Source: Arthrobacter sp. FW305-BF8
GTDB taxonomy: Bacteria > Actinomycetota > Actinomycetes > Actinomycetales > Micrococcaceae
Length of the DNA stretch: 32,000 nt
Reading direction: 5' to 3'
Assembly: GCF_021789315.1 (NCBI RefSeq)
Contig: NZ_CP084561.1
Coordinates: forward strand, 744,927-776,926
In this document: one piece after another, positions 10,538 to 25,899 of the stretch
Layout of the letters: each line of letters starts with the position of its first letter
How positions within the stretch are numbered: position 1 is the stretch's first letter
The notes under the pieces: generated by a model
Told to the model about the DNA's origin: nothing
Databases searched by the model: none
The model's input: only the letters and a program-made list of their open reading frames with translations
Program-made: the position numbers and the translations under genes

Positions 10538-10652
10538 GACATATTCCCGGGCTCCGGCCGGCTGCGGGTAACATCCCATAGGAACAGTAACCGGGCTCAC
10601 AGTATCCAGCGCAGTGTACGAGCCAAAGTCGAACACTCGAAAGATAGTTTCC

Positions 10653-13463
10653 ATGGCTGACACTGCAATGAATTCAGAAACAGATCTCGCCGCCGAACTC
10701 CGCGCCGACGTGCGCCGGGTCTCCACCCTGCTGGGCGAATCCCTGGTCCGCCAGCACGGCCCCGAGCTCCTCGACCTGGTGGAGCAGGTGCGCCTGCTGA
10801 CCAAGGAATCCAAGGAGGCCGCCCGGGGCGGGGCGGAGGCCACCGGCCCGTGGAGCGCGCACGACGTCGTTGCCCAGGTCCGTGAGCTGCTCGCCTCCCT
10901 GCCGCTCGAGCAGGCGACCGACCTGGTCCGCGCCTTCGCCTTCTACTTCCACCTCGCCAACGCTGCCGAACAGGTCCACCGCGTCCGCGGGCTGCGCACC
11001 CGGCAGGAGAAGGACGGCTGGCTGGCCAAGGCCATCGAGGACATTGCGCGGCAGGCCGGTCCGGCGGTGCTGCAGGAAGTGGTCAACGAGCTGGATGTGC
11101 GCCCGATCTTCACCGCGCACCCCACGGAGGCGTCCCGCCGCTCCGTGCTGGACAAGATCCGCAAGCTCTCGGACGTGCTGGCCCAGCCCACCGAGGAGGG
11201 CACCAGCGCCCGGCGCCGGCAGGACCGGCAGCTGTCGGAGATGATCGACCAGATGTGGCAGACGGACGAACTGCGCCAGGTCCGGCCCACGCCGGTGGAC
11301 GAGGCCCGCAACGCCATCTACTACCTCGAGAGCATCCTGACGGATGCGCTGCCGGAGATGCTGACGGATTTCTCGGAACTCCTCGGCGAGCACGGCGTCG
11401 CGTTGCCGGCCCAGAACGCCCCGATCCGGTTCGGCTCCTGGATCGGCGGTGACCGTGACGGCAACCCCAACGTCACGGCCGCCGTCACGCACGAGATTTT
11501 GCAGCTGCAGAACCAGCATGCGGTCCGGATCAGCATTGCCATGATCGACGAGCTCATCTCCGTCCTGTCCAACTCCACGGCCCTCGCCGGCGCCGACCAG
11601 GCGCTCCTCAATTCGATCGACGCCGATCTCGCGAAGCTGCCCGGCCTGGACCGCCGCATCCTGGAACTCAATGCCCAGGAGCCCTACCGGCTGAAACTGA
11701 CCTGCATCAAGGCCAAGCTCATCAACACCGGCAAGCGTGTGTCCGCGGGCTCCAAGCACCAGCCCGGGCGTGACTACACCTCCACCGAGGAGCTCATCGC
11801 CGAACTCGAACTGCTGGAACTGTCCCTGCGCAACCACTCGGCGTCCCTTGCCGCGGACGGCGCGCTGGCACGTGTCCGCCGCGCCATCGCCTCCTTCGGC
11901 CTCCACCTGGCCACCCTCGACATCCGCGAGCACGCCGACCACCACCACGACGCGGTCGGCCAGCTCATGGACCGCCTCGGCGGTCCCGGCATCCGGTACG
12001 CCGAACTGACCCGGGACGAGCGCCTCGAGGTCCTCAGCGCAGAGCTCGCGTCCCGCCGTCCGCTGTCCGGCCACCCGATCAAGCTCGACGGCGCCGCTGA
12101 CGGCACGTACGACGTCTTCCGTGAGATCCGCCGCGCCCTGCGCACGTACGGCCCGGACGTCATCGAGACCTACATCATCTCCATGACCCGCGGCGCCGAC
12201 GACGTTCTGGCCGCTGCCGTCCTGGCACGCGAGGCCGGCCTGGTCAGCATCTTCGGCGACGCCCCGTACGCCAAGATTGGCTTCGCACCGCTGCTGGAGA
12301 CCGTCGAGGAGTTGCGTGCCTCTGCGGAGATCGTTGACCAGCTGCTGTCCGACCCGTCCTACCGCGAGCTGGTCCGGCTGCGCGGGGATGTCCAGGAAGT
12401 CATGCTCGGCTACTCGGACTCCAACAAGGAATCCGGCGTGATGACCAGCCAGTGGGAAATCCACAAGACCCAGCGGAAGCTGCGCGACATCGCCTCCAAG
12501 CACGGCGTCCGCGTGCGCCTGTTCCACGGCCGCGGTGGATCCGTGGGCCGCGGCGGCGGACCCACTTACGACGCCATCATGGCGCAGCCGAACGGCGTCC
12601 TCGAAGGTGAAATTAAGTTCACCGAACAGGGCGAGGTCATCTCGGACAAGTACTCCCTGCCGGAACTTGCCCGGGAAAACCTTGAGCTGTCCCTCGCCGC
12701 CGTACTCCAGGGCTCTGCGCTGCACCGCACGCCGCGCACCTCGGACGACCAGCGCGAGCGGTTCGGGCACGTCATGGAGACCATCTCCGACGCCGCGTTC
12801 GCCCGCTACCGCAGCCTCATCGATCACCCGGACCTGCCGGCCTACTTCCTGGCCTCGACGCCGGTGGAGCAGCTCGGTTCCCTGAACATCGGCTCCCGCC
12901 CGTCCAAGCGCCCGGATTCCGGTGCCGGGCTTGGTGGCCTGCGTGCCATCCCGTGGGTGTTCGGCTGGACCCAGTCCCGGCAGATCGTGCCGGGCTGGTT
13001 CGGCGTCGGCTCCGGGCTGAAGGCGGCACGGGAAGCGGGGAACTCCGCCCAGCTCGTCGAGATGATGCACGGCTGGCACTTCTTCCGCTCCGTGCTGTCC
13101 AACGTGGAAATGACCCTCGCCAAGACGGACATGGAGATCGCCGGATACTACGTGGACACCCTGGTCCCGGCGGAACTGCACCATCTTTTCCGCGCCATCC
13201 GCGAAGAGTACGAACTCACCGTCTCCGAGATCCAGAACCTTACCGGAGAGAACCTGCTGCTGGACGCCCAGCCCACGCTCAAGCGGTCCCTGGAAATCCG
13301 TGACCAGTACCTCGACCCGATCAGCTACCTGCAGGTGGAACTGCTCCGCCGCGTGCGGGCGGAAGGTGCCAGCATTTCCGCAGGGGAGATCGATGAGCGC
13401 CTGCAGCGGGCCATGCTCATCACCGTCAACGGTGTGGCAGCCGGCCTCCGCAACACCGGGTAG
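10653..13463 (+). CDS. ppc: Phosphoenolpyruvate carboxylase
   Basis: Full-length PEPC. Motifs include TAHPTE ([12 protein letters not shown]), [24 protein letters not shown] and the C-terminal ..[11 protein letters not shown]. The ATG at 10653 is preferred over the upstream GTG at 10614, so the start is uncertain by 39 nt. Confidence 0.95.
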
Positions 13464-13477
13464 CCCCTACCGCCGCG

Positions 13478-13602
13478 GACGCTTCCTCACCTTTCGTCGG
13501 TTCCTTCCTAACGCGTCCTCGCCCGATGCGGGAGGGTTTGGCCTGAAGCGACGGGAACTGAGGAAGCGTTGCTGGAATTGTTGCGAAAGGTGAGGACGCG
13601 TC
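13478..13602. repeat. 125-nt nested imperfect palindrome in convergent spacer
   Basis: The outer arms gacgcttcctcacctttcg (13478-13496) and cgaaaggtgaggacgcgtc (13584-13602) pair at 18/19 positions. The inner arms aacgcgtcctc (13510-13520) and tgaggaagcgtt (13559-13570) pair at 10/11. The left arm also pairs perfectly over 11 bp with the inner right arm, which allows alternative folds. The right end touches the ABC ATPase stop codon. Confidence 0.7.
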
Positions 13603-14359
13603 AGGGGCCGTAGTGCACCACGATGGTCCGGCAGGGCGTCGTGCTGGGGACGCCGTCGCCGTCGTCGGAGTACGCGACGGTGCTCACGCGCACGCCGTAG
13701 AGGGCGGACAGCTCGGCGTCGGTCAGGAGTTCCGCAGCGTGTCCGGTCCGGACGCCCGAGCGGCCCAGCAGGACCACCCGGTCGGCAAGGTGCAGGGCGT
13801 GGTCGGGATGGTGAGTGCTGAGGAGCAGTGCCATGCCGTCGGCCATCAGTTCGCGCAGCAGCGTCAGGACGCGTGCCTGGTTCTTCAGGTCCAGGCCGGT
13901 GGCGGGCTCGTCCAGCACCAGGATGGGCGAGCCGGCGGCGATCGCCCGGGCGATGAGGATGAGCTGCTGCTCGCCCCCGCTGAGGGTGGGGAAACGCCGG
14001 TCCCGCAGCCCGGCCGCGCCCACCCGCTCCATCGCCTCCAGGGCTGCGTTGTGGTCGGATGGCCCGGGTGTCCGGAACACGCCAACGTGCCGCGCCCGCC
14101 CCATCAGGACCATGTCCAGCGCCCGGTAGGCGAAGGCGCTGCCGTGGGCCTGCGGGACGTAGCCGGCGCTCTCACTCCGCCGGACCGTTCCCTCCTGCGG
14201 GTCCAGCAACCCGGCGGCACAGCGCACCAGCGTGGTCTTGCCGCTGCCGTTGGGACCCAGCACGGCGGTGGCGGTCCCCGGCGGCACGCGGAAGCTGACG
14301 CCGCGGAACACCCAGTCCCGGGGCGAGTAGCCGAAGCCCACGGCGTCGAGTTCAAGCAC
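13601..14359 (-). CDS. ABC transporter ATP-binding protein, FecE/BtuD-type (metal-chelate importer)
   Basis: Walker A GPNGSGKTT, signature LSGGEQQLILIARAI and Walker B ILVLDEPATGLD are present. At 252 aa it has the typical size for this class. Confidence 0.85.
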   Translation of the reverse strand: MLELDAVGFGYSPRDWVFRGVSFRVPPGTATAVLGPNGSGKTTLVRCAAGLLDPQEGTVRRSESAGYVPQAHGSAFAYRALDMVLMGRARHVGVFRTPGPSDHNAALEAMERVGAAGLRDRRFPTLSGGEQQLILIARAIAAGSPILVLDEPATGLDLKNQARVLTLLRELMADGMALLLSTHHPDHALHLADRVVLLGRSGVRTGHAAELLTDAELSALYGVRVSTVAYSDDGDGVPSTTPCRTIVVHYGP

Positions 14360-15539
14360 TGTCCCAGACCTTCTCGCGGTTCCGGCGCAGGAGCAGGAAG
14401 AACACGGGCGCGCCGATCAGGGCCGTGAGGACGCCGAGCGGGATCTCCCCGGCGGTGGCCGTGCGGGCGATGGTGTCCACCAGAACGATGTAGGCGCCGC
14501 CAAGCAGGAAAGAGACGGGCAGGAGGACACGGTGGTCCGGCCCCACCCACATGCGGGCCAAGTGCGGGATCACCAGGCCCACCCAGCTGACGGCCCCGCT
14601 GACTGCCACCGCGCCGGCCACGATGAGCGCCACCGCCACGAGCACCACCCAGCGGAGCGGGCGCGGGCGCACGCCCAGGGCGGCCGCGTCCTCGTCGCCG
14701 AGGGACAGCACGTTGATCCGCCAGCGCAGGGCCACGAGGACCGCGGCCCCGCCAAGGACGGGGATCAGGGCCACCGCTACTTTGGCAAAGGTTGCCGTGG
14801 ATACGCTGCCCAGGAGCCAGAAGACGATAGCGGGCAGCGTGGTGTTGGGGTCCGCAATGTAGGTCACCAGGGCCACCAGGGCTGAAAAGAAGGACCCGGT
14901 GACCACGCCGCCGAGCACGATCATGAGCATCGGCGTCCCGGCGCGGCCCGAGGTGATCAGGAACAGGGTCCCGAGTGCCAGCAGCCCGCACACGAAGGAG
15001 CCGCCCACCAGGAGGAGCGGACCCAGCCCGAGCAGCAGCGCCAGGGCTCCGCCGAAGGATGCGCCGGCAGACACACCGATGATCTCGGGGCTGACGAGGG
15101 GATTGCGGAAAATGGCCTGCAGCGCTGCGCCGCCAATCGCCAGGCCGCCGCCCACCAGCAAGGCGAGCAGGATCCGCGGCAGCCGGACCAGCAGCACAAC
15201 GTTCTGTTCGGTGCCGCTGGCCTGAACCGGGACCGGGGCGAGCTGTGCGGCCAGGATCTGGACCACGTGGTCCAGCGGCACGCTGTAGCGACCCACCGCC
15301 AGCGCCAGCACCGCCACGGCGATAAGGAAGCAGGCACTGAGGGCAACGGGAACGACGACGGCGGGTTCCCGCCGTCGTTCTCCCGCCTCCCGTTTCCCAA
15401 GCCTGTGTTCCAGTGCCTGCCGCTCTTCAGCGCCGCCCGGGCCGGCAGCCGGGCCCGCCCGTGGCAGTGCCGGCTGCGCCGGTGGCAGTGCCGGGCGCAG
15501 CCGCCTGCCCAGCCGCGGGGAGCCCGCCTCATCAAGCAT
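14352..15539 (-). CDS. FecCD-family metal-chelate ABC permease
   Basis: A polytopic FecCD/BtuC-like hydrophobic core. The ATG at 15539 overlaps the SBP stop (ATGCTTGA). The product still carries a roughly 55-aa Arg/Pro-rich N-terminal extension, so the true start may lie further downstream. Confidence 0.8.
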   Translation of the reverse strand: MLDEAGSPRLGRRLRPALPPAQPALPRAGPAAGPGGAEERQALEHRLGKREAGERRREPAVVVPVALSACFLIAVAVLALAVGRYSVPLDHVVQILAAQLAPVPVQASGTEQNVVLLVRLPRILLALLVGGGLAIGGAALQAIFRNPLVSPEIIGVSAGASFGGALALLLGLGPLLLVGGSFVCGLLALGTLFLITSGRAGTPMLMIVLGGVVTGSFFSALVALVTYIADPNTTLPAIVFWLLGSVSTATFAKVAVALIPVLGGAAVLVALRWRINVLSLGDEDAAALGVRPRPLRWVVLVAVALIVAGAVAVSGAVSWVGLVIPHLARMWVGPDHRVLLPVSFLLGGAYIVLVDTIARTATAGEIPLGVLTALIGAPVFFLLLRRNREKVWDSA

Positions 15540-16665
15540 TGAACTGCCGGTAGTTGGCGGACTGCCCGTTCTCTGCGGTCCGGAGAATCTTGTCCAGCTC
15601 ATCGCCGGTGAGTTCGTGGTTGTACAGGAACCTGAAGTATTCGGAGGCCTTGCTCCGCACGGCAGACCTCTGCTGCGGGAAGGCGATGTCGCCCAGCCAG
15701 TGCCACATCAGCGCCGACTCCTGCCCGGGCGGATCCCAGCGGTAGCCGCCCAGCGGTACCTTGTACACGCGCTTCGAGCGGACCGCGGCCACGTTCTGCC
15801 ACACCGGGTCCGAGTAGATGTCCTGCGCCATGGCGGCGTCGAAGTTACCCAGCAGGATGACCTCGGGGTCCCAGCGCAGGACCTGCTCGATGTCCACGCC
15901 CAGCATGCCGGAACCGGTCAGCGGGTCCTTGCCGGTGGCCGGGTTGGAGCCGCCCACCAGCTTGATGTAGAAGTCGTTGTAGCTGTTGGCACCGGCCACC
16001 TTGAGCCCGCCGGTGAAGCGGTTGAAGTACAGGATGCTCGGGCCCTTGGACGCGCGCCCGGCGGCGAGGGACTTGACCTCGGCAAGCTCCCGGTCGCTCC
16101 GGGTCTTGAGCTCGGCGGCACGCTCGGGCTTGCCGAGCATCGCGGCGAACATGGCAACCCAGGCGTCCACATCCTCCTGCGTGCCGGAGTTCTTCAGCCC
16201 CAGAACCTGAAGCCCCGCCTTCTCCAGGGGCTCGATGAGCTGCGCGTCCGACCACTGGACCACCACGTCCGGGTTGAGGGCCCGGATACTTTCAACGTTG
16301 GCGGTGAAGTCCTGGGTGGCGATGTCGTGCGGTAGGTCCAGTGCGCCGGGAAACATGGAGCCCATGATGCCGTCGCGCATGGCCGTCCAGGAGGCGTTGT
16401 GCATGGCCGCGAGATGGTCGGCGCTGCGGTCGACGGCGACCAGCAGGGACGCCGACGGCATCGGGATGGTCACCACCCGGGCCACCGGCCAGTCAAAGGA
16501 CAGGGTCTTGCCGCGCTGGTCCGTGAGGCTGATGCTGTTGGTGCTGTCGGGAGGGGACGACGGCGGGGCGGTGCCGGATGCGCCGCATCCGGCCAGCAGG
16601 GCGGCGGAGCCGCCTGCAACAAACACCTGTAGGGCGGCGCGGCGGTTTAGGTCTGCAGCTGTCAT
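15532..16665 (-). CDS. Periplasmic-binding-protein (BtuF/FhuD class) lipoprotein with Tat-type signal
   Basis: The N-terminus MTAADLNRRAALQVFVAGGSAALLAGC contains a twin-arginine motif and a lipobox. It has class III SBP features and is the first gene of a 3-gene importer operon. Confidence 0.8.
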   Translation of the reverse strand: MTAADLNRRAALQVFVAGGSAALLAGCGASGTAPPSSPPDSTNSISLTDQRGKTLSFDWPVARVVTIPMPSASLLVAVDRSADHLAAMHNASWTAMRDGIMGSMFPGALDLPHDIATQDFTANVESIRALNPDVVVQWSDAQLIEPLEKAGLQVLGLKNSGTQEDVDAWVAMFAAMLGKPERAAELKTRSDRELAEVKSLAAGRASKGPSILYFNRFTGGLKVAGANSYNDFYIKLVGGSNPATGKDPLTGSGMLGVDIEQVLRWDPEVILLGNFDAAMAQDIYSDPVWQNVAAVRSKRVYKVPLGGYRWDPPGQESALMWHWLGDIAFPQQRSAVRSKASEYFRFLYNHELTGDELDKILRTAENGQSANYRQFNA

Positions 16666-16866
16666 CGTTGACTCCCTGCGCGTGGGTCTTCACAGCATCC
16701 GCTTCAAGGGCAGGGCTGTCAACGCTTTCTCCTGCGTTCGAGGACGGGCCGGTCCAGCTGCCCGGACCTGCCGGCCCGCGCCGTTCCCTTGTCCGCGCCT
16801 CGTTCCCTTGTCGGCGTCAGGGCCCGGTGCTACTTTCAGAGGACCCTTGCAGAAGGTGGCCACGGG

Positions 16867-17640
16867 ATGGTTATCGATGGTGCCCAGTTGTTCGTCCGCT
16901 ATGCCTATCCGCCCAATTCACGTGGCAGCTGCGGCCCGCCGGACAGCGACGCCCTGCTGCACTACGGGCAGTCCGGCGTCACGGACCAGGGGCTCCGCGA
17001 ACTTGCCAAGGGCTTTGCCGGCGCCTGGCCCTACCTCGAACTGATCGCCGGATCGCATGGCATCGCCGATCCGCTGGACGCCCGCGTGGTGGAGGCCTAC
17101 TGGGTGGGCAACAGCCTCCTGGATACCGTCGGCATCACCAACCTCGGCAATTCCATGGAGGACAGGTTCCGGGCGCGCACCGGGCGGCAGTTCCCGCATC
17201 TGGTGGAAGGGGTGCTGGCGGGCGGGGTCCCACACCACAGTTTCCACGTGTTCGAGATCTACCCGTGGCTGGGCCTGCTCCGCGACGAACGCCGGCACGC
17301 CACCGCGCTGAACGTGCTGGACAGGTGCAGGATCCGCTGGGGGCAGGTGCTCGCGATCTCCGGGGACGACGCCGTCGTGCGGTCCCGGCCCCTGGTGTGG
17401 GACGGGACAGCCCTGGACATCGGCGAGCCCGTGGTGGAATCAGCCAAGTTCGCCGTGAACGGGACCGGCTTCGTGGCCGGGCTGGCCGTGGGCGACGTCG
17501 TCTCACTGCACTGGGACTGGGTGTGCGACCGACTCTCCACCCACCAGCTGCAGCAGCTCAAGCACTTTACGGCGCGGCACCTCCGGATTGCCAACAGCGG
17601 CGTCGCACACCGCGGCGCAGCCATAGCGCTCGAACACTAG
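16867..17640 (+). CDS. Conserved hypothetical protein (I recall the family as DUF6390) with a HypC-like C-terminal segment
   Basis: The internal ATG at 16867 is preceded by gaaggtgg. The product begins MVIDGAQLFVRYAYPPN.. and has coding-like GC3. The C-terminal segment CRIRWGQVLAISGDDAVV...GDVVSLHWDWVCDRL resembles the HypC pattern MCLGIPGxVV...GDWVLVHVGFA. Confidence 0.6.
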   Translation: MVIDGAQLFVRYAYPPNSRGSCGPPDSDALLHYGQSGVTDQGLRELAKGFAGAWPYLELIAGSHGIADPLDARVVEAYWVGNSLLDTVGITNLGNSMEDRFRARTGRQFPHLVEGVLAGGVPHHSFHVFEIYPWLGLLRDERRHATALNVLDRCRIRWGQVLAISGDDAVVRSRPLVWDGTALDIGEPVVESAKFAVNGTGFVAGLAVGDVVSLHWDWVCDRLSTHQLQQLKHFTARHLRIANSGVAHRGAAIALEH

Positions 17641-17706: not shown

Positions 17707-18093
17707 TTACGGTGACTGCGGCGCCGGACCGTCGGGATGCTCGGGGGTCTTGACGGCCGTCGCATCACGGGCGGACGACTCGCCGGCTGGCCGGCCGGCA
17801 GGCGAATCATCGGTTCCCGTGTGCTCGCGTCCCGGTTCGGTGCCCTCCTCCTTGATGACGTCCTCGCCCCGGCGGGTGGTGCTGACACCGACGTCAACCG
17901 GAGCCGGTGCCGCGTCTTCAGGGGTTTCGTCCGCTCCGGGCTGGGCGGGTTCCTTCAGCGGCGGTTCGCTGCCGAAGGCCCGGGCTGTCCCTGGTGCGGT
18001 GCCCTCTGCGGCGCCCGACGCGGTGCCCTGTTCTTCGCCCTTCCCGGCGACCGTTTCCTCGTCGGCGGGGTCAGGCTGGTTCGTGGGTGACAT
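17707..18093 (-). CDS. Acidic, intrinsically disordered hypothetical protein (last gene of hydrogenase operon)
   Basis: A strong RBS (AAGGAGAGCAGCATG) lies inside the hypC 3' end, giving a 23-nt overlap. The 128-aa product is Pro/Glu/Ala/Gly/Thr-rich with no hydrophobic core. GC3 is coding-like. Confidence 0.5.
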   Translation of the reverse strand: MSPTNQPDPADEETVAGKGEEQGTASGAAEGTAPGTARAFGSEPPLKEPAQPGADETPEDAAPAPVDVGVSTTRRGEDVIKEEGTEPGREHTGTDDSPAGRPAGESSARDATAVKTPEHPDGPAPQSP

Positions 18094-18376
18094 GCTGCTC
18101 TCCTTGTGGTGGTTGTGCGGGCTGGGATCCGGGACCGGTGTCCGCAGGGCGGCCCATCAGCTCCAGTCCTTCCATGGCCTGTTCTGCGCCCGCGGCGTCT
18201 ACGCGTTCCAGCGCGAAGCCCATGTGGATCAGGACCCAGGTGCCGGGTTCCAGGGGCCCCTCATCCAGCAGCCCGATGTTGATCTTCCGGTGCACTCCGG
18301 CCACATCGACGAGTGCCAGTTGGCCGCCGTACCCCTCGAGGAGTTCAACGACCCTGCCGGGTATTCCGAGGCACAT
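18071..18376 (-). CDS. hypC: Hydrogenase assembly chaperone HypC/HupF family
   Basis: Has the N-terminal MCLGIPGRVVEL motif with the essential Cys2, and WVLIHMGFALERVD. A roughly 25-aa Pro/Gln-rich C-terminal tail follows. Confidence 0.9.
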   Translation of the reverse strand: MCLGIPGRVVELLEGYGGQLALVDVAGVHRKINIGLLDEGPLEPGTWVLIHMGFALERVDAAGAEQAMEGLELMGRPADTGPGSQPAQPPQGEQHVTHEPA

Positions 18377-18390
18377 GTACGGACACCGCC

Positions 18391-18900
18391 TTACTTTGAA
18401 GTGGAAAACCGGCCTGGAGTGGAAGAGGCCCGGCCGAGCAGGGACTCGACGGCGGCGGCGGCCTTGGGCACCGCATCGGCCACCGCCGGCGAAAGGCCGA
18501 TGCCTTCGGACAGGTCTGCGGGGACACAGCCCACCACGTACGTCACCGGCAGGCTGCCGCCCATGGACCGAAGCCGGCCCAGCACGGCCGCCGGGTCCAT
18601 GCCGTGGGGATCGAGCATGGCCCTGCTGTCCAGGTCCGCCGCGCTGACCCGTAGCACGCGGATGCTGCCGGGAGCCCAGCTACCGTCCGCAGGCACCGTG
18701 TCCACGAGGACCAGGGTGCCGACGCCGGCCAAAAGATCGTAGGCCAGGTGCATGCCGCGGATGCCGTAGTCCACCACGCGGACGCCGGTAGCCAGCGGCT
18801 GCGGATGGTCGGCGAGGTGACGTGCCACCTCGGGGCCGAAGCCGTCGTCGTGCAGGAACATGTTCCCGACGCCGGCCACGAGGACGCCGCCGGCGGTCAC
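18391..18900 (-). CDS. hupD: [NiFe]-hydrogenase maturation endopeptidase (HyaD/HupD/HybD family)
   Basis: Contains VLVAGVGNMFLHDDGFGPEVARHL and later DPHGM, matching the metal-ligand Asp/His pattern of this family. The GTG start overlaps the stop of the 39-aa ORF (GTGA). Confidence 0.85.
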   Translation of the reverse strand: MTAGGVLVAGVGNMFLHDDGFGPEVARHLADHPQPLATGVRVVDYGIRGMHLAYDLLAGVGTLVLVDTVPADGSWAPGSIRVLRVSAADLDSRAMLDPHGMDPAAVLGRLRSMGGSLPVTYVVGCVPADLSEGIGLSPAVADAVPKAAAAVESLLGRASSTPGRFSTSK

Positions 18901-19016
18901 ATCCGCCGCACTTTCATGTACCGCCGGATGTCCGGAACTGCGCGGATTCCGACGTAGATGCCCCAGAGTGCCATCGCTGCAAGCACCGAAACCGTGGCCA
19001 TTCCTATTGCCTTCAT
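18897..19016 (-). CDS. 39-aa single-TM microprotein (not in ORF track; below size cut-off)
   Basis: Hand translation of the minus strand gives MKAIGMATVSVLAAMALWGIYVGIRAVPDIRRYMKVRRM*. The ATG overlaps the upstream gene stop (TAATG) and the stop overlaps the protease GTG (GTGA). A purine-rich GGAGGGAAAGGAA lies 7-8 nt upstream. The product is one hydrophobic helix plus a basic tail. Confidence 0.65.
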   Translation of the reverse strand: MKAIGMATVSVLAAMALWGIYVGIRAVPDIRRYMKVRRM

Positions 19017-20413
19017 TACGGGTTTTCCTTTCCCTCCAGCGGCTCCAGTTCGTCAGGGGCGTAGTAGAAGGACCGGCCGTAGCCCTCGTGAAGATCGGCC
19101 GCCGGATCCTGCTCGAGGACGAGCCCGACGTGGGTGCTGCCGTCGACGTCGAAATGCACGCTGGTGACCCGCCCGGTCTGCCCGCCGAAGAACAGGTCCT
19201 GGGCGTCGGCGCGCCGGTTCGGGTGCACGCGCACCCGGCTGCCGCGGGCCACCGCGACGCCGTTGATCACGACGGCGTCCTGGTCCGGCCGGACACGGGC
19301 CTCCGCCTCCGGATTCCACCACGGAACGTCCTGGCTGGCCGTGCTCCACGATTCCGCCGGGGCATAGTCACCGGGATCCGCGGCGAACGCGCGCGGGTTC
19401 CGCAGGGCGCCGTGCAGCTGCTGCAGGTCCTCCGGCGACATCGCCTCACAGCGGTCGATGACGGCGGCGGCCCGCGAGTCCGTCGCCCGCGCCTCGGCCT
19501 TTTCCTCGTCGGTCAGCGTCAGTACCCGCAGCGTGAGGATCTCGTCGATCTCGGTGGAGTCATACAGCGCCACCGAACTTTCCGGGGCGACCGCGGGATG
19601 ATCGTAAAGAATGATGGGCGAGATCAGCAGCACGTCGGTCTGGCCTTCGGGGCCGGCCAGCACGGGCCAGCAGCGGTGCTGGGAACACAGCCCGGCTGCA
19701 GGCTGTGCCCACCCGGGCGGGTCCAGCAGCGAGACGAAATCCCCGTCCCGCACGCCGAGCAGCACGTGGGCGCCGATGAAGGAGGCCGCGGCCGCGTCCT
19801 GCCGGTTCCCGGCCGGCAGGGGACCGGCCGGCAGCGGATGAGCCGTGTTGGCCGCGGTGATGCTGAGCCGCAGCAGCCCGCCGGAATCTTCGGCGGCATG
19901 CAGCCGCAGTTCTCCGCGGAGAGCACGACGGCGGCGCACCAGCCGGCCGGCCGGCCTCCCGGCGTCGTCCTTGAGTTCCTCGACGTCGAGTCCCTCGGGT
20001 ACCTCCACCGGCAGGACCTGTCCGGCCCGGAGCTGGGCCACGGAGAACGGCCCGAACCCCACTTCCTGTTCTACGGCCTCGTCCCAGCTCAGCCAGTTCG
20101 CACCGCCCACGGTGAGGCTGTCCACGGGAGTGAACCCGCCGCCATCGTCCGCTTTTTCTGCCGTGCGCGTCTGCAGCTGCAGGAAGCGGAAATGGATTTC
20201 AAGCCCGGCCTCGGCGCCGGGGGCAAGCAGGCAGTCGGCGGACATGGACGGTTCCTCCCCGCTGCCGTCCTCCGCGGCGCCGGGCGGACCCAGGATCCCG
20301 AACTGCCAGCGGACCTGGTTCTTCTGGGCGGAGGCCCGGTAGGGGTAGAGCAGGTAGCCCTCGTAGAGGACGGCGTCCGCGACGGCCCGGGCAAGGGCCA
20401 GACTGGTGTTCAT
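19016..20413 (-). CDS. Conserved hypothetical protein of group 1h hydrogenase clusters (465 aa)
   Basis: The internal ATG (residue 71 of the tracked ORF) overlaps the upstream stop as ATGA. The product begins MNTSLALARAVADAVLYEGYLLYPYRASAQKNQVRWQFG. I recognise no catalytic motif. It is co-oriented with, and translationally coupled to, hydrogenase genes on both sides. Confidence 0.7.
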   Translation of the reverse strand: MNTSLALARAVADAVLYEGYLLYPYRASAQKNQVRWQFGILGPPGAAEDGSGEEPSMSADCLLAPGAEAGLEIHFRFLQLQTRTAEKADDGGGFTPVDSLTVGGANWLSWDEAVEQEVGFGPFSVAQLRAGQVLPVEVPEGLDVEELKDDAGRPAGRLVRRRRALRGELRLHAAEDSGGLLRLSITAANTAHPLPAGPLPAGNRQDAAAASFIGAHVLLGVRDGDFVSLLDPPGWAQPAAGLCSQHRCWPVLAGPEGQTDVLLISPIILYDHPAVAPESSVALYDSTEIDEILTLRVLTLTDEEKAEARATDSRAAAVIDRCEAMSPEDLQQLHGALRNPRAFAADPGDYAPAESWSTASQDVPWWNPEAEARVRPDQDAVVINGVAVARGSRVRVHPNRRADAQDLFFGGQTGRVTSVHFDVDGSTHVGLVLEQDPAADLHEGYGRSFYYAPDELEPLEGKENP

Positions 20414-21063
20414 GGCCGTTCCCCGGAAACATCCGCGGTGGCCTGCGCGAGGAGTTTCTCCACCGCCGATTCCCACGACGTGAGGCCCTCGGCGGACTTG
20501 TACCGGGCGAGTGCTGCCAGGACGTCGCGGTCCAGGCGGATCCATCCGGCGTTCGGGAAGTACTGGTCCATGAGGCTGCGCCAAGCGGCGACGGGCAGTT
20601 TGTAGGACGCCTCGAGGTCCCACGGCACCTGTTCCACCGTGAACCCGGTCTGCCCTTTGGTGAACACGGTGCCGGAGAACAGCAGCTCCAGCGGTATCTC
20701 GCCGTCGCGCAGCGCATGCAGGTATTTGGCGGCGGCCACGTCGAAATCAAACGTGCAGGGCAGCGGGAGGTCCGCCTCGGTGCTGCCCGTGAAACCCTGC
20801 ACCATGGTGCTGCACTGCATCCAGATGAACGACTTGAGCGTGCTGGGCCAGCGTCCGCGGTCTCCGAATAGGTCCAGCAGGCCCGTCTCCTCCTCGGGCG
20901 CGTACCCGCGGCGCTGGGGCAGGATCCGGACCTGGCAGCGCAGCGCCACGGCGTGCACCACGGCCCCGGTGCCTTCCGTCAGCTGCAGCCTGGCCGTCAG
21001 CTGCGGGGCGGCGGCGTAGGGTTCGGGCCGGATCTCCATCACGGCGAAGGAAAGCTCGGTCAC
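20410..21063 (-). CDS. Conserved hypothetical protein (recalled as DUF6084-like), hydrogenase-associated
   Basis: 217 aa, beginning (V)TELSFAVMEIRPEPYAAAPQLTARLQL. The GTG start overlaps the upstream stop (GTGA). No motif is recognised. Confidence 0.7.
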   Translation of the reverse strand: MTELSFAVMEIRPEPYAAAPQLTARLQLTEGTGAVVHAVALRCQVRILPQRRGYAPEEETGLLDLFGDRGRWPSTLKSFIWMQCSTMVQGFTGSTEADLPLPCTFDFDVAAAKYLHALRDGEIPLELLFSGTVFTKGQTGFTVEQVPWDLEASYKLPVAAWRSLMDQYFPNAGWIRLDRDVLAALARYKSAEGLTSWESAVEKLLAQATADVSGERP

Positions 21064-21773
21064 CGGAAGCCTCCCGTGCCGGCGGAATCTGCCGGCGCCG
21101 GAACGCTGCGGCGGTTGATCCGGTCGAAGAAGGAGGCGAGCTCATCGCGTGCCTCCTGGCCGCCGTCGAACCCCCGCCAGAGGCGGCGCAGCCGGCCCAC
21201 AAGCTCGTAGCAGGCGTCCACCGGAACGAGGTGGCAGTCCGCGGCGGCCCTGCCCGGGCCCGGGCCGCGGATCAGCAGCGCCTCCGTGTCCGGCGCCGCG
21301 AGGCCGAGGGCCGGGTTGCGGGCCAGCACGCTGTCCCAGGCGGCAAGCGGCAGTTCCGATTCGGTGGCCCCGGCCGGGCCCGGGTAGAACGCCACCGTGC
21401 GCCCGAGCTTGGAACTGCGGAAGAAAAACGCCAGGCCCACCGGAATTTCCAGTTCGTCCCACTGCCCAGGGCCGAGATCGAAGCCGGGGAAGGAGAAGTA
21501 TCTGTCCGGCACCGAGCGGTAGCGCAGATGGGCGGTCGCATCGGTGAAGAGGAGGTAGCAGGGCCGGCAGGTGCACATCATGGCGTGGCTCCCCAAGTCC
21601 ACCACGTGCTGGTGTGCCTCGGAAATCGGTTCGCCGCACATTTCGCAGCATTCCCCGGCGGCAGGAGCGGGCCGGTTCGCGGAAATCCGCCGCAGCAAGG
21701 CCACCGGCAAGGTGCCGTTGGCCTGGCCGGTTCCCGGGCCGCGCCCTGTACCTCCTCCGTTCTCCATGTTCAT
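21060..21773 (-). CDS. Cys-rich conserved hypothetical protein (recalled as DUF5947-like), hydrogenase-associated
   Basis: The ATG at 21773 lies 1 nt after the hhyE stop. The N-terminal region carries CCEMC-x20-CTCRPC plus three His residues, a probable metal site. The remaining roughly 170 aa are uncharacterised. Confidence 0.7.
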   Translation of the reverse strand: MNMENGGGTGRGPGTGQANGTLPVALLRRISANRPAPAAGECCEMCGEPISEAHQHVVDLGSHAMMCTCRPCYLLFTDATAHLRYRSVPDRYFSFPGFDLGPGQWDELEIPVGLAFFFRSSKLGRTVAFYPGPAGATESELPLAAWDSVLARNPALGLAAPDTEALLIRGPGPGRAAADCHLVPVDACYELVGRLRRLWRGFDGGQEARDELASFFDRINRRSVPAPADSAGTGGFR

Positions 21774-21774
21774 C

Positions 21775-23013
21775 TCAGCGGTCCTGTCCGCCGGCTGCCT
21801 GCAGTTCCGGGGCAATGCCGGGCGCCGGCGTCGCGATGGGCACGGACACGCCGGCTGCAGGTGCCGGTCCACGTGCCGCCTGAACGGACACCGCCGCAGA
21901 CACCGGGGCCGGCTCCGCCGGGGCCGGCTCCGCCGGGGCCGGCTCCGCCGGTTCCGGTCCAGGCGCCGCCGGGACGGGTTCCAGCCCGGCCGGTGTCACC
22001 AGCGGGATTGCCTGCACCGGCGTCACGGCTGCCGGGGCTGCCGGTACCGGGGCAACCGCCAACGGCGCGGACTGCACGGACACCGTCGGGACCGCCACGG
22101 ACATCACTCCGTTCCGGACCAGCAGCGGAAGCGGCTCCAGGTGCAGGTCCTTGTCCTCGAGGCAGGTGCCCGCCCGCCGCACGTCAAAGTGGCCGCGGCA
22201 GGTAGGGCAGGTGAGCAGGCCGCCGCCAACCGGTGCCGCGAGGGCGCGCTGCAGCACGGCGCCGGCCATGGAACCGGTGCAGCGCGGGCAGTAGTCGCGG
22301 TAGGCGTAGATGTCCTGGCCTGTCCGGCAGGCCAGCACCGCGTAGCCGCCGACCAGGAAGCCTGCCACCTCGCCGGGTTCGAGCCCGGCGATCTCCGGAA
22401 CCGGTTCCCACGTGCCGCCGGACATGTCGTGCCAGGATTCGGCGGGCGTGCCGCCCGCCGGATTGTTCACCCGGACCAGCAACGAATCCACCGGAATCAG
22501 CGCCGGGGCGCCCGGCTGCTTTTCCGCTTCGACGACGTCGATGGCGGTCACCTCGGGGGCGGCGTTCTGGATGGCCTCCTCAACGGCGTACTTGAGCGTG
22601 ACGGACGATGACGGGCACCCTTGGCAGGTGCCGAGCAGCTTGAGCCGCACCACGCCGTCGGGACTGATGCCTTCGAGCTCCACGTCGCCGCCGTGGGAGC
22701 CGAGGTAGGGCCGCACACTGTCCAGCGCCGCGGCCACCCGCGCCTCCAGCGAATGGGGGTGCAGCCCGTGGATCACCAGGAGGCCGGCCACCAGGCTGTC
22801 AGCGGTCAGCGCTTCCAGAGTGACGTCGTCGAGCTTTCCATGGGCCTGCAGGATCTCCATGATCCGCTGCAGTCCCGCGCCGTAAAGGTCTGTCACCTGC
22901 CGGACCAGGTCCTCGGCACGGCCGCGGGCCACCGCCCCGCCGGCGCCGAGGGCGTCAAGGAGTGTGCCTATTTGGTCGCCGCTCTGCAGCGCCGGCCGGT
23001 CCCCGCCGAGCAT
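21775..23013 (-). CDS. hhyE: NifU-domain / Rieske-fold-like putative Fe-S protein of Hhy clusters with Pro/Ala-rich tail
   Basis: Contains a NifU C-terminal domain (VRPYLGSHGGDVEL...LLGTCQGCPSSSVTLK). This is followed by a Rieske-like beta segment whose ligands are CPRC...CPTC instead of CxH...CxxH. A roughly 110-aa P/A/V-rich tail follows, including (AEPAP)x3 encoded by three perfect 15-bp repeats at 21905-21949. The gene starts 3 nt after the hhyL stop. Confidence 0.75.
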   Translation of the reverse strand: MLGGDRPALQSGDQIGTLLDALGAGGAVARGRAEDLVRQVTDLYGAGLQRIMEILQAHGKLDDVTLEALTADSLVAGLLVIHGLHPHSLEARVAAALDSVRPYLGSHGGDVELEGISPDGVVRLKLLGTCQGCPSSSVTLKYAVEEAIQNAAPEVTAIDVVEAEKQPGAPALIPVDSLLVRVNNPAGGTPAESWHDMSGGTWEPVPEIAGLEPGEVAGFLVGGYAVLACRTGQDIYAYRDYCPRCTGSMAGAVLQRALAAPVGGGLLTCPTCRGHFDVRRAGTCLEDKDLHLEPLPLLVRNGVMSVAVPTVSVQSAPLAVAPVPAAPAAVTPVQAIPLVTPAGLEPVPAAPGPEPAEPAPAEPAPAEPAPVSAAVSVQAARGPAPAAGVSVPIATPAPGIAPELQAAGGQDR

Positions 23014-23016
23014 GGC

Positions 23017-24810
23017 CTACTCGCCGGTCAGGGTCTGGGTGGGGGAGTGGAGCATGTCCAGCGTCTGCCCGTTGCCCAGGTACATGTGGACACCGCAGGG
23101 CAGGCAGGGATCGAAGCTGCGGACGGTCCGCATGATGTCGATGCCCTTGAAGTGCTCGCGGTCGTTCTCCTCGAAGATCGGCTGCCCCTGGACCGCGTCC
23201 TCATAGGGGCCGGCCACACCGTTGGAGTCGGTGGGGCTGGCATTCCATGGAGTGGGCGGGTAGGGGTGGTAGTTGGCGATCTTGCCGTCGCGGATCACCA
23301 TGTGGTGGGACAGGACTCCGCGGACCGCCTCGGTGAAGCCGCAGCCGATGCCTTCATCCGGGACCTCGAAGGTTTCCCACGTCTTGGTGCGTCCGGCCCG
23401 GATCTCCTCGAGGGCCTTTTCCGCGAAGTGCAGCGCCGCAGCCGCGGCGTAGGCCTGGAAGTAGGTGCGGGCGCGGTTGCGTTCGAGCGTGTTGCTCCAC
23501 TGCGGGATGTTCCACTCGAACGTGACGGGCCCCTTCAGAGCGGTCTTGGGCAGGTTGATCTGGACGCTCCTGCCGGTGGCCTTGAGGTAGCCGATGTCCA
23601 CGAGTCCGGCGAGCGCCGTGGCCCAAAGCCGTGCGAGTGGGCCGCCGCCGGTGTCCAGGGCGAGGTTGTCCTGGCCGTCGAACCAGCGCGGGGACATGAC
23701 CCAGCTGTACTTGTCCGAGAGGTCGCGCTTCTGCGGCCGCGGGTTGGTGTGCTGGTTCCACGGATGCCTGCGGTCCACCGGGTTGCCCAGCGGATCGTGG
23801 GTAACGAACATTTCCTGGTCTTCCCAGTCCTCGTAGTACGAAGAGCCGAGCATGATTCGCAGGCCCAGGTTGATGCGCACCAGGTCGGTGGTGACCAGTT
23901 TGCCATCCACCACCACGCCCGGGGTGACGAACATCTTCCGGCCCCACTCGGTCATGTCCTTGTATTCGAAGTTGCAGTAGTCCGGGTCCTGCAGCGACCC
24001 CCAGCAGCCCAGCAGCGTCCGCCGCAGCCCCACCTGCTCATAGCCCGGCAGTGCCTCGTAGAAGAAATCGAACAGGTCGTCGTGCATCGGGACGACCTTC
24101 TTCATGAACTCCACGTAGCGCATGAGCCGCGTGAGGTAGTCCGTCATCAGCTGGATGGTGGCCACCGTCCCCACGCCGCCCGGATAAAGCGTGGAGGGGT
24201 GCACATGGCGGCCCTCCATGAGGCAGAACATCTCGCGGGTGGCGCGGCTGACCTGCAGGGCCTCCCGGTAGAACTCGCCGGTGAAGGGGTTCAGCGAGCG
24301 CATGATGTCGGCGATGGTCCGGTAACCGTGGTCCGCCTCATGCGGTGCCCGGGTGTTTTCGGCCTTGGCGAGGACGCCGGGGTTCGTTTCGGAGACCATC
24401 TTTTCGCAGTAGTCCACGCCAACGAGGTTTTCCTGGAAGATGTTGTGGTCGAACATGTACTCGGCGGCTTCGCCCAGGTTGACGATCCATTCGCCCAGGC
24501 TCGGGGGCTTGACGCCGTAAGCCATGTTTTGCGTATAGCAGGAGCAGGTGGCATGGTTGTCGCCGCAGATCCCGCAGATGCGGCTGGTGATGAAGTGGGC
24601 GTCCCTTGGGTCCTTGCCTTTCATGAAGAGGGAGTAGCCGCGGAAGATCGAGGAAGTGCTCTTGCATTCCACGACCTGGTTGTTCTCGAAATCGATCTTT
24701 GTGTAGATGCCGAGGCTGCCGACGATCCTGGTGATGGGATCCCAGTTCATTTCCACCAGGTTGCTGTTGCCCGCTCCGCTTCCGGAACCCATGGGAATTG
24801 TTGACGTCAT
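23017..24810 (-). CDS. hhyL: [NiFe]-hydrogenase large subunit, group 1h (formerly group 5)
   Basis: The L1 motif TSRICGICGDNH and the L2 motif SFDPCLPCGVH are present, and I recall these as the published group 5/1h signatures. A 22-aa extension after the terminal His (MYLGNGQTLDMLHSPTQTLTGE) is consistent with endopeptidase processing. Confidence 0.95.
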   Translation of the reverse strand: MTSTIPMGSGSGAGNSNLVEMNWDPITRIVGSLGIYTKIDFENNQVVECKSTSSIFRGYSLFMKGKDPRDAHFITSRICGICGDNHATCSCYTQNMAYGVKPPSLGEWIVNLGEAAEYMFDHNIFQENLVGVDYCEKMVSETNPGVLAKAENTRAPHEADHGYRTIADIMRSLNPFTGEFYREALQVSRATREMFCLMEGRHVHPSTLYPGGVGTVATIQLMTDYLTRLMRYVEFMKKVVPMHDDLFDFFYEALPGYEQVGLRRTLLGCWGSLQDPDYCNFEYKDMTEWGRKMFVTPGVVVDGKLVTTDLVRINLGLRIMLGSSYYEDWEDQEMFVTHDPLGNPVDRRHPWNQHTNPRPQKRDLSDKYSWVMSPRWFDGQDNLALDTGGGPLARLWATALAGLVDIGYLKATGRSVQINLPKTALKGPVTFEWNIPQWSNTLERNRARTYFQAYAAAAALHFAEKALEEIRAGRTKTWETFEVPDEGIGCGFTEAVRGVLSHHMVIRDGKIANYHPYPPTPWNASPTDSNGVAGPYEDAVQGQPIFEENDREHFKGIDIMRTVRSFDPCLPCGVHMYLGNGQTLDMLHSPTQTLTGE

Positions 24811-24840: not shown

Positions 24841-25899
24841 TTACCAGGTGCGCCGGGCCCCGGTGAGGAGCTCGGGTCCGGGCCGGCGCCACTTGGGCTC
24901 CTGGTCCAGGGTGTGCGTCGTGATGCCCCTGAGCGTCCGGATGGCGGAGCCGTAGGGCCGGATGGTGCTGGTGGAAAGCTTGCCGCCGGGAGGCTCATCC
25001 ATGAAGGGCATGAACTTGTCCGGGAAGCCCGGCATGGTGCAGCCGATGCAGATGCCGCCGACGTTGGGGCAACCGCCGATGCCGTTCATCCACCCGCGCT
25101 TAGGCACGTTGCACTTCACCACGGGGCCCCAGCAGCCGAGCTTGACGATGCACTTGGGGGAGCCGTACTCGGTGGCGAAGTCGCCCTGCTCGTAGTAGCC
25201 GGCCCGGTCGCAGCCCTCGTGGACCGTCTTGCCGAACAGCCAGGTGGGTCGCAGTGCCTCATCCAGCGGAATCATCGGTGCCTGGCCGGTGGCCTGATAG
25301 AGCAGGTACGTCATGGTTTCGGAGAGGTTGTCAGGCTGGATCGGGCATCCGGGCACGCACACGATGGGGATGCCGGCCTTGGACTTCCAGTCGTAGCCGA
25401 GGTAGTCCGGCACACCCATGGCGCCGGTTGGGTTGCCGGCCATGGCGTGGATGCCGCCGTAGGTTGCGCAGGTTCCGGCGGCAATGATCGCGGTGGCCTT
25501 GGGTGCCAGGCGGTCCAGCCACTCACTGGTGGTGATGGGCTGGCCGGTCTCGAGGTCGTTGCCGAACCCGCACCAGTAGCCGCCGGGGTCATGGAGCTTC
25601 TCGTTGGGAATGGATCCCTCGACCACCAGCACGAACGGTTCAAGTTCGCCCCGGTCCGCCTTGCGGAACCATTCCAGGAAGTCGTCGGCCCCTTCCTGCG
25701 GGCCGCATTCAAAGTCGATCAGTGGCCAGTGCATGGCGATCTTCGGCAGGCCGGGCAGCGCCCCGAGGGCGATTTCCTCGACGCTCGGCTGGGTGGCCGC
25801 GGTCAGGGCCACCGAGTCGCCGTCACAACTGAGCCCTGCGTTGATCCACAGCACGTGGATAAGGGCTTCTTCGGCCTTGAGGGAAGTTTCCGTAGGCAT
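24841..25899 (-). CDS. hhyS: [NiFe]-hydrogenase small subunit, group 1h, no Tat signal
   Basis: Fe-S cluster Cys patterns are present (LSCDGDS, GTCATYGG, CVPGCP, CNVPKRGW, GGCPNVGGICIGCTMPGFPD). The N-terminus MPTETSLKAEEALIHVLW lacks a twin-arginine leader, as expected for cytosolic group 1h enzymes. Confidence 0.92.
   Translation of the reverse strand: MPTETSLKAEEALIHVLWINAGLSCDGDSVALTAATQPSVEEIALGALPGLPKIAMHWPLIDFECGPQEGADDFLEWFRKADRGELEPFVLVVEGSIPNEKLHDPGGYWCGFGNDLETGQPITTSEWLDRLAPKATAIIAAGTCATYGGIHAMAGNPTGAMGVPDYLGYDWKSKAGIPIVCVPGCPIQPDNLSETMTYLLYQATGQAPMIPLDEALRPTWLFGKTVHEGCDRAGYYEQGDFATEYGSPKCIVKLGCWGPVVKCNVPKRGWMNGIGGCPNVGGICIGCTMPGFPDKFMPFMDEPPGGKLSTSTIRPYGSAIRTLRGITTHTLDQEPKWRRPGPELLTGARRTW

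Follow-up and report, generated by a model that had tools for sequence, protein, structure and literature searches.

In the [NiFe]-hydrogenases exemplified by Escherichia coli HyaA/HyaC and Ralstonia eutropha HoxK/HoxZ, a single C-terminal helix of the small subunit, together with a cytochrome b anchor, holds the enzyme at the membrane by the quinone pool. The small subunits of group 1h ('Hhy') hydrogenases lack that helix, and the hhy clusters encode no cytochrome b; HhyE has been proposed as the electron relay (PMC6883350). The Hhy enzyme of Mycobacterium smegmatis is found in the membrane fraction only, resists 5% cholate, has no obvious transmembrane regions and passes its electrons via menaquinone to both terminal oxidases (bioRxiv 10.1101/769216). 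Membrane association has been linked with high affinity, the anchor being not known; the membrane-associated enzyme of Methylacidiphilum has a higher affinity than the isolated enzyme, and the group 1h enzyme of Cupriavidus necator is reported to be cytoplasmic (PMC7174314). Here we analyze a 39-codon gene of the DUF6893 family that lies inside the hhy cluster of Arthrobacter sp. FW305-BF8, in a stretch of 32,000 nt (NZ_CP084561.1, GCF_021789315.1, positions 744,927-776,926 of the forward strand; hereafter the window). Comparison across loci identifies it as a conserved gene for a membrane peptide, and we propose this peptide as a candidate answer to the acknowledged question of how group 1h enzymes attach to the membrane.

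Three described arrangements offer points of comparison. The likeness to the HyaA and HoxK helix lies in the proposed role only: the DUF6893 peptide is a separate gene product without haem ligands, the Hhy enzyme faces the cytoplasm whereas theirs faces the periplasm, and binding of the peptide to the enzyme is only proposed. Neither does it resemble the four-helix di-haem cytochrome b anchors HyaC, HoxZ and HupZ, as it has 39 residues, one helix, no histidine in that helix and no cytochrome b match in Pfam. A second precedent is HucM of the M. smegmatis group 2a enzyme Huc, an operon-encoded non-catalytic subunit that links an enzyme oxidizing atmospheric H2 to the membrane and to menaquinone (PMC10017518). 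The role that we propose for DUF6893, an extra operon-encoded non-catalytic subunit connecting a hydrogenase to the membrane, is similar; however, HucM has about 188-189 residues and forms a peripheral, tetrameric, amphipathic coiled-coil tube, whereas the DUF6893 peptide has 39 residues, a hydrophobic transmembrane helix and a non-amphipathic tail, and the two are unrelated in sequence. Finally, CydX/AppX, AcrZ and KdpF are peptides of fewer than 50 residues with one helix, encoded in the operon of the enzyme that they serve and easily missed by length cut-offs. The DUF6893 peptide shares their size, its single transmembrane helix and its place in the operon of an enzyme, although its sole Pfam match is DUF6893, and although the large polytopic membrane subunits on which such peptides pack have no counterpart in the Hhy cluster, where this peptide is the only membrane protein encoded.

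The open reading frame (ORF) occupies positions 18897..19016 of the minus strand (39 codons plus TGA) and translates as MKAIGMATVSVLAAMALWGIYVGIRAVPDIRRYMKVRRM. Its ATG (19016-19014) shares an A with the TAA (19018-19016) that ends the upstream gene, which encodes a conserved hypothetical protein of 465 residues (here X465; 19016..20413, minus strand), and its TGA (18899-18897) overlaps the GTG (18900-18898) that starts the gene for a HycI/HupD-type maturation protease (here hupD; 18391..18900, minus strand; PF01750, TIGR00072). A Shine-Dalgarno region, GGAGGGAAAGGA (19026..19037, minus strand), lies within the last codons of the X465 gene; it consists of GGAGG at 19037-19033 and GAAAGGA at 19032-19026, the latter separated from the ATG by 9 nt. 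The first-pass annotation had recognized this minus-strand ORF, its TAATG and GTGA overlaps and its upstream Shine-Dalgarno sequence, all of them correctly, and had taken it for a single-pass membrane microprotein gene inside the hydrogenase operon, a view that the comparative data below support, as they do its translational coupling. The length of 465 residues that it gave for the upstream protein is also the length called in public assemblies that carry the identical peptide.

By size alone, a 39-residue ORF is within chance expectation in this GC-rich DNA, 14 kb of which hold 134 ORFs of at least 30 residues. We therefore turned to other hhy loci, and fetched 80 from species-representative genomes using HhyL as query; the HhyL of the window is 84-98% identical to those of this set, which includes Arthrobacter, Rhodococcus, Nocardia, Mycobacterium, Streptomyces, Actinoplanes, Modestobacter and uncultured Actinomycetota. 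A six-frame search with the peptide profile found the ORF on the hhy strand and at the syntenic place in 78 of the 78 loci that contain enough downstream DNA, the two loci without a match ending too early. Its start codon is at the aligned position, its length is exactly 39 residues in 74 of 80 copies, GAAAGGA or GAGAGGAG precedes the start by 6-10 nt in nearly all 80, start and upstream stop codon overlap in 54 of 80, and X465 is the immediate upstream neighbor in 75 of 80. The ratio of non-synonymous to synonymous change (pN/pS) is 0.60 in frame, as compared with 1.10 and 1.22 in the two shifted frames, and GC content at codon positions 1, 2 and 3 is 0.63, 0.43 and 0.82, so that the third position (GC3) exceeds the second. 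Within the gene, codons 26-39 are the more constrained (pN/pS 0.37, versus 0.75 for the helix). Both the conserved ORF at the syntenic position of related clusters and the purifying selection that the first-pass annotation had named as checks are thus found. Synteny, the conserved length, start, stop and ribosome-binding site, and the frame-specific pattern of substitution together indicate that the gene is real and stands above the chance background; by these comparisons, 18897..19016 is shown to be a translated gene under purifying selection that would encode a 39-residue bitopic membrane peptide of the DUF6893 family.

The position of the gene within the cluster is less fixed than its presence. 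It lies 3′ rather than 5′ of hupD in five loci, and in about 15 loci another gene stands between the two, with the DUF6893 gene kept at a distance of 240-640 nt from hupD; hupD or X465 nevertheless adjoins it in almost every locus examined. One locus, from an actinobacterial metagenome-assembled genome (L072), has two diverged copies in tandem (15474-15593 and 15607-15726). The intervening gene, found at L010 15460-16098, L168 4142-4459 and L173 4394-4723 and in about 15 actinobacterial loci, encodes an acidic low-complexity protein that has no Pfam family and a conserved pattern, PPYEGR[RK]ESADV...GGATGPV...ADTPRGA.ASP.DEQPA...RGEDQ. The shifting of the DUF6893 gene within the cluster without its loss argues for selection on the product and not on a coupling device. 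These findings bear on the view that the ORF has no function as a protein, being either a chance ORF or a cis-acting ORF that delivers ribosomes to hupD. Chance ORFs of this size are abundant here and the overlapping stop and start codons would suit a coupling ORF, but the amino-acid sequence, length and C-terminus are kept across phyla, the substitution pattern and GC3 are specific to the frame, the gene is retained when 3′ of hupD or hundreds of nucleotides from it, its motif is absent from shuffled controls (see below), and an Rfam scan of both strands of the region returned no RNA family. We give this view almost no credence and regard it as effectively refuted by the comparative data.

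The peptide had been presented in the first-pass annotation as unannotated, which is wrong. It matches Pfam DUF6893 (PF21833) over residues 10-39 at 36.7 bits (cut-off 24.6; E=4.2e-9), the precomputed public annotation of the identical protein gives the same family, and the Prokaryotic Genome Annotation Pipeline names the family, so that relatives carry the RefSeq name 'DUF6893 family small protein'; the window peptide is 92-97% identical to proteins so named, WP_410555200.1 of Arthrobacter globiformis among them. Contigs in 45 blocks of a public assembly collection, those of Arthrobacter sp. ISL-65 included, already carry the identical peptide as a gene call. Protein database searches, queried with a 40-residue read-through and with an alignment that has a 40-residue member at its head, returned at least 918 clusters at 90% identity at the family level (all 120 matches listed being 39-40 residues long), and an exhaustive search of 1.84 billion representatives returned 78 clusters at 50% identity, nearly all of 39 residues. 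In alignments and column counts the family form is about 39 residues with one hydrophobic helix followed by a C-terminal P-D-x-x-R-Y-x-x-R-x-M, and the window peptide has this form. It also has the family setting, inside a group 1h cluster and adjoining hupD and the gene for the 465-residue protein; every DUF6893 member whose context was inspected sits in an hhy cluster. In length and context, therefore, nothing sets the window gene apart from the rest of this catalogued family, which has no assigned function. Scans of the peptide against Pfam and NCBIfam gave no family besides DUF6893. A profile search of all PDB chains produced only chance-level matches (E at least 0.2) to unrelated hydrophobic helices, which we rejected as homologues, and so no solved chain matches the peptide; the sole solved group 1h structure, the soluble C. 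necator HofKG dimer 5AA5, is also the closest solved structure to HhyL, through HofG. Our literature searches on DUF6893, Hhy structures and accessory genes found no mention of the family or of the peptide. In the published gene order of M. smegmatis, MSMEG_2714, a 'hypothetical protein', is flanked by MSMEG_2713, the protease, and MSMEG_2715, a 'conserved hypothetical', and it is listed as induced along with MSMEG_2713-2720 in a microarray table (PMC5445863). From its place in the gene order, MSMEG_2714 is probably the orthologue.

As detected with actinobacterial profiles, DUF6893 is a family of 39-40 residues, and shorter or longer forms are weakly detected or missed. The gene at first seemed to be absent from C. 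necator and Methylocystis, where X465 and hupD abut and the PLSDB gene tables are empty at this point; such an absence would have agreed with the solubility of the C. necator enzyme, but the correlation proved false, since a six-frame profile search revealed a divergent copy just 3′ of hupD in each. On C. necator H16 pHG1 this copy (L081 14657-14758; NC_005241.1 ~66753-66854) reads MKGFLKYLVLPALVVALLANIKDIRRYIRIRSM, with AGGAGG 5 nt upstream (E=1e-6), and on Methylocystis parvus pMpar-2 (L082 ~14329-14427) it reads MGLFEIILGLLILALIAFNFRDIVRYIKITMM. Both are ORFs of 32-33 codons with a Shine-Dalgarno sequence and a terminal DIxRYIxIxxM-stop, and neither is in the PLSDB tables. We then fetched the 80 metagenome loci nearest to C. 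necator HofG. An automatic tally found an ORF ending in P-[DEG]-x-x-[RK]-Y-x-x-[ILM]-[RSK]-x-M-stop 3′ of 34 of the 41 metagenomic and plasmid hupD genes that have downstream sequence; with L130 and L154, whose motif ORFs the automatic count overlooked, the figure is about 36 of 41. In the real loci 40 reading-frame segments terminate in the strict motif, whereas controls made by reversal or triplet shuffling yield no such segment. In the shorter and longer relatives alike, the shared ending is P-D-x-x-R-Y-x-x-x-x-x-M-stop.

The metagenomic copies take two forms, a short one with a single helix and one of about 60-65 residues that has a polar N-terminus, one helix and a tandem pair of P-x-x-[KR]-[KR]-Y motifs (LILSNPIAKRYLGQFGVGDLANAALPDLDRYLKLRSM). 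The long form occurs at L093 13760-14038, at L102, L105, L137 and L163 and in some 20 other metagenome loci, with P-x-x-[KR]-[KR]-Y-[LM] twice and an ending of RYLKLRSM-stop. The peptide gene is not always found beside the protease, since in some metagenomic loci it lies directly 5′ of hhyS. About 28 metagenomic hhy loci (L093 3048-6643 and others from L094 to L152) have, some 3 kb 5′ of hhySL, a second, HhyS-like paralog without a large-subunit paralog at its side; a PAS histidine kinase and a LuxR-type response regulator come next, and the paralog, kinase and regulator may form a small-subunit-based sensing module. In 9 of 28 such loci, an extra short copy of the peptide gene lies divergently upstream of the HhyS paralog with no protease nearby. 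Taken together, the actinobacterial, plasmid and metagenomic loci show DUF6893, as judged from sequence comparison, to be a near-universal accessory gene of group 1h clusters. Its standing as a companion of group 1h across several phyla, in forms that the family profile barely sees, appears to be new with respect to the literature searched.

The peptide is predicted to comprise five N-terminal residues outside the cell, one transmembrane helix, a break at S/A-I-P-D and a 12-residue basic cytoplasmic tail ending in Met-COOH. Its best 19-residue Kyte-Doolittle window scores 1.88 (family mean 2.59, minimum 1.87), and hydrophobicity and the AlphaFold2 model place the transmembrane helix at codons 6-24 (18945..19001, minus strand). 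The model, built with 79 sequences, has helices at residues 2-26 and 28-38 with a break at residue 27; the mean predicted local distance difference test (pLDDT) score is 88.5, with block means of 86-98 over residues 1-30. Net charge averages about 0 over the five N-terminal residues and +3.75 over the tail, which by the positive-inside rule points to an N-out/C-in topology. The earlier description of one hydrophobic helix followed by a basic tail is thereby borne out. One face of the helix is lined with small residues (G5, A13 and [GA]19-x-x-x-G23), the fraction of G, A or S being 1.00, 0.82, 0.92 and 0.88 at positions 5, 13, 19 and 23, which suggests a face of the kind that packs helices together. 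The tail (codons 25-39; 18900..18944, minus strand) follows the pattern R-[SA]-[IVL]-P-D-x-[RQK]-R-Y-x-x-x-R-x-M-COOH. Five residues of the peptide, G5, D29, R32, Y33 and M39, are invariant, P28, R37, S26 and G23 are nearly so, and no copy extends beyond Met39. We considered whether the tail might be an amphipathic interfacial helix and rejected the idea, because permuted tails reach a hydrophobic moment as high as its own (0.29-0.38). As the tail is non-amphipathic, its conservation is better explained by a specific partner than by its lying on the lipid surface.

This anatomy invites two further explanations. Peptides of the Hok, TisB and Fst type are of similar size and composition, and the cluster could in principle carry such a membrane-damaging type I toxin-like peptide. 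Type I toxins are free-standing genes with their own promoter and an antisense RNA, whereas this gene is co-directional with a metabolic operon and overlaps the stop and start codons of its flanking genes, the Rfam scan is empty on either strand, and syntenic position across phyla and vertical conservation with the enzyme are unlike mobile toxin loci. A toxin is hardly credible on these grounds and, like a chance ORF or a pure coupling ORF, is essentially excluded. The second explanation is that the peptide modulates some other integral membrane protein, such as a terminal oxidase, a quinone-handling protein or a nickel transporter, acting as a microprotein of the CydX, AcrZ or KdpF type that couples this partner to Hhy expression. 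The small-xxx-small face suggests that the helix packs on another one within the bilayer, the remaining proteins of the cluster offer no transmembrane helix for this, and the electrons of Hhy are reported to reach both terminal oxidases through menaquinone. However, no membrane-protein gene is consistently linked in the loci examined, and the strongest constraint falls on the cytoplasmic tail and not on the helix. We consider a modulatory role of this kind improbable.

The reading that we favor, and hold tentatively, is that the peptide is a membrane-docking subunit supplied to Hhy in trans. Its helix would lie within the bilayer, probably packed on its own copies or on another membrane protein, while the invariant tail residues (D29, R32, Y33 and the C-terminal M39) would plug into the soluble part of the cytoplasm-facing Hhy complex, either on the HhyS side of the enzyme or at one of the accessory proteins. 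Docking would then help to account for the firm attachment to the membrane, for which HhyS, HhyL and HhyE offer no explanation; the peptide would do what a C-terminal small-subunit helix does in other group 1 hydrogenases, and its amount might be set by translational coupling to the neighboring genes. Several observations argue for this reading. The combination of invariant polar residues, a fixed C-terminus and no amphipathic moment points to a docking tail rather than a lipid-surface tail; copies of the gene also adjoin hhyS, or HhyS paralogs with no protease nearby; and Hhy is membrane-bound without a known transmembrane segment. The suggestion of the first-pass annotation that the peptide is a membrane tether or an assembly factor is likewise plausible, and fits the published puzzle of tight membrane binding by an enzyme in which no transmembrane segment is known.

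A number of points weigh against the docking reading. The usual neighbors of the gene are of the maturation type (X465, hupD and hypC) rather than hhySL, C. necator retains a homologue though its enzyme is reported to be cytoplasmic, and three metagenomic loci that contain hupD (L115, L138 and L147) have no copy at all. Distance-matrix (mirror-tree) covariation with eight proteins of the cluster singled out no partner, all coefficients being near r~0.5-0.7, and our literature searches found no physical or genetic data on the peptide. Moreover, unless the peptide oligomerizes, one helix and 12 tail residues make a thin tether for a complex of some 200 kDa.

The genomic neighborhood suggests a different role, that of a membrane-localized maturation or assembly factor which recruits or regulates HupD, or X465, DUF6084 or DUF5947, at the membrane and is absent from the completed enzyme; the final stages of processing the large subunit and of assembly would in that case occur at the site where the enzyme acts. 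The peptide gene lies beside hupD, on its 5′ or 3′ side, in about 95% of loci from several phyla, including those with rearranged clusters; in the window the two genes share a stop/start overlap, and in Actinobacteria the peptide gene is translationally coupled to X465. A factor absent from the mature complex would also account for the purified C. necator and Methylacidiphilum enzymes having been described with two structural subunits only. Rare database proteins read through in a single frame as HupD-DUF6893 (P0069, 181 residues) and as the C-terminus of X465 followed by DUF6893 (P0044, 141 residues); these may be either real fusions or artefacts of frameshifts or gene calling and, if real, would be informative about the partner of the peptide. 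Their rarity and the chance that they are artefacts reduce their weight for a maturation role, and such a role does not explain the extra copies that occur without a protease, beside HhyS paralogs or directly 5′ of hhyS, nor does it in itself explain stable membrane binding of mature Hhy. In addition, the HyaD/HybD/HycI-family proteases of other hydrogenase groups are not known to depend on any such partner. We regard a maturation factor as the main rival of the docking reading, possible though rather unlikely.

The docking reading can be extended to a bolder conjecture, which we advance as doubtful. DUF6893 and its divergent relatives may be the missing membrane subunit of group 1h hydrogenases, with the tail plugged into the enzyme and the glycine-faced helix oligomerizing so that the distal iron-sulfur end is fixed at the membrane; access of menaquinone might be shaped in this way, and the peptide would be needed for the high apparent affinity for H2 by which cells subsist on the gas at its atmospheric level. 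Likewise, where HhyS paralogs occur with a histidine kinase, the additional copies beside them would tether a small-subunit-based sensor.

The remainder of the cluster follows the pattern of related loci. On the minus strand the order of genes is hypA, hypB, hhyS, hhyL, hhyE, DUF5947, DUF6084, X465, the DUF6893 ORF, hupD and hypC, and the group 1h-specific accessory block hhyE-DUF5947-DUF6084 has an identical order in all related loci. Pfam and NCBIfam matches identify hhyS (24841-25899) and hhyL (23017-24810) as genes for group 1h-type small and large subunits, and Pfam matches identify hhyE (21775-23013, NifU and Rieske-like), DUF5947 (21060-21872) and DUF6084 (20410-21063); hypC is at 18071-18376, and all of these are on the minus strand. 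The C-terminal part of HhyE (21775-22100, minus strand) is a long Pro/Ala-rich tail with PAEPA repeats, and the HhyE counterparts in C. necator and Methylocystis are short proteins of about 175-190 residues, the former being annotated as a NifU family protein. On three plasmids, RefSeq-derived tables label HhyS as 'hydrogenase expression protein HypE' (L081 7866-8921, L082 7884-8963 and L083 5902-6957), a recurrent mislabel of the group 1h small subunit that has also been remarked for R. equi (PMC13332983).

X465 has no family in Pfam or NCBIfam scans and thousands of homologues, those listed all being 'hypothetical'. Its AlphaFold2 model has a confident beta-sandwich core (residues ~45-265) and a small C-terminal barrel that resembles PetP of cytochrome b6f (Foldseek, 7r0w_V; template-modeling score 0.78 over the target), and comparison of the model gave no informative match apart from this barrel. 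Apparent DUF6893-X465 fusions in long open frames (for instance in L010 and L027) were discarded; the frame differs from that of X465, and they are merely open frames in GC-rich DNA. Beside the cluster lie a DUF6390 gene (16789-17640, plus strand), which is kept at the same place in the closest relatives, genes for a FecCD-type ATP-binding cassette importer comprising binding protein, permease and ATPase (13601-16665, minus strand), and a phosphoenolpyruvate carboxylase gene (10614-13463, plus strand).

Much of the biological uptake of atmospheric H2 is attributed to group 1h hydrogenases. With a membrane peptide retained by nearly all of the hhy clusters examined, whether from Actinomycetota, Proteobacteria or uncultured soil bacteria, the question of how these enzymes are anchored becomes easily testable. 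The gene also matters for the heterologous production of these oxygen-insensitive enzymes, as constructs that omit the 39 codons may yield a soluble form of low affinity. Even if it should prove irrelevant to localization, the peptide is a clear case of a conserved microprotein hidden by a 60-residue cut-off.

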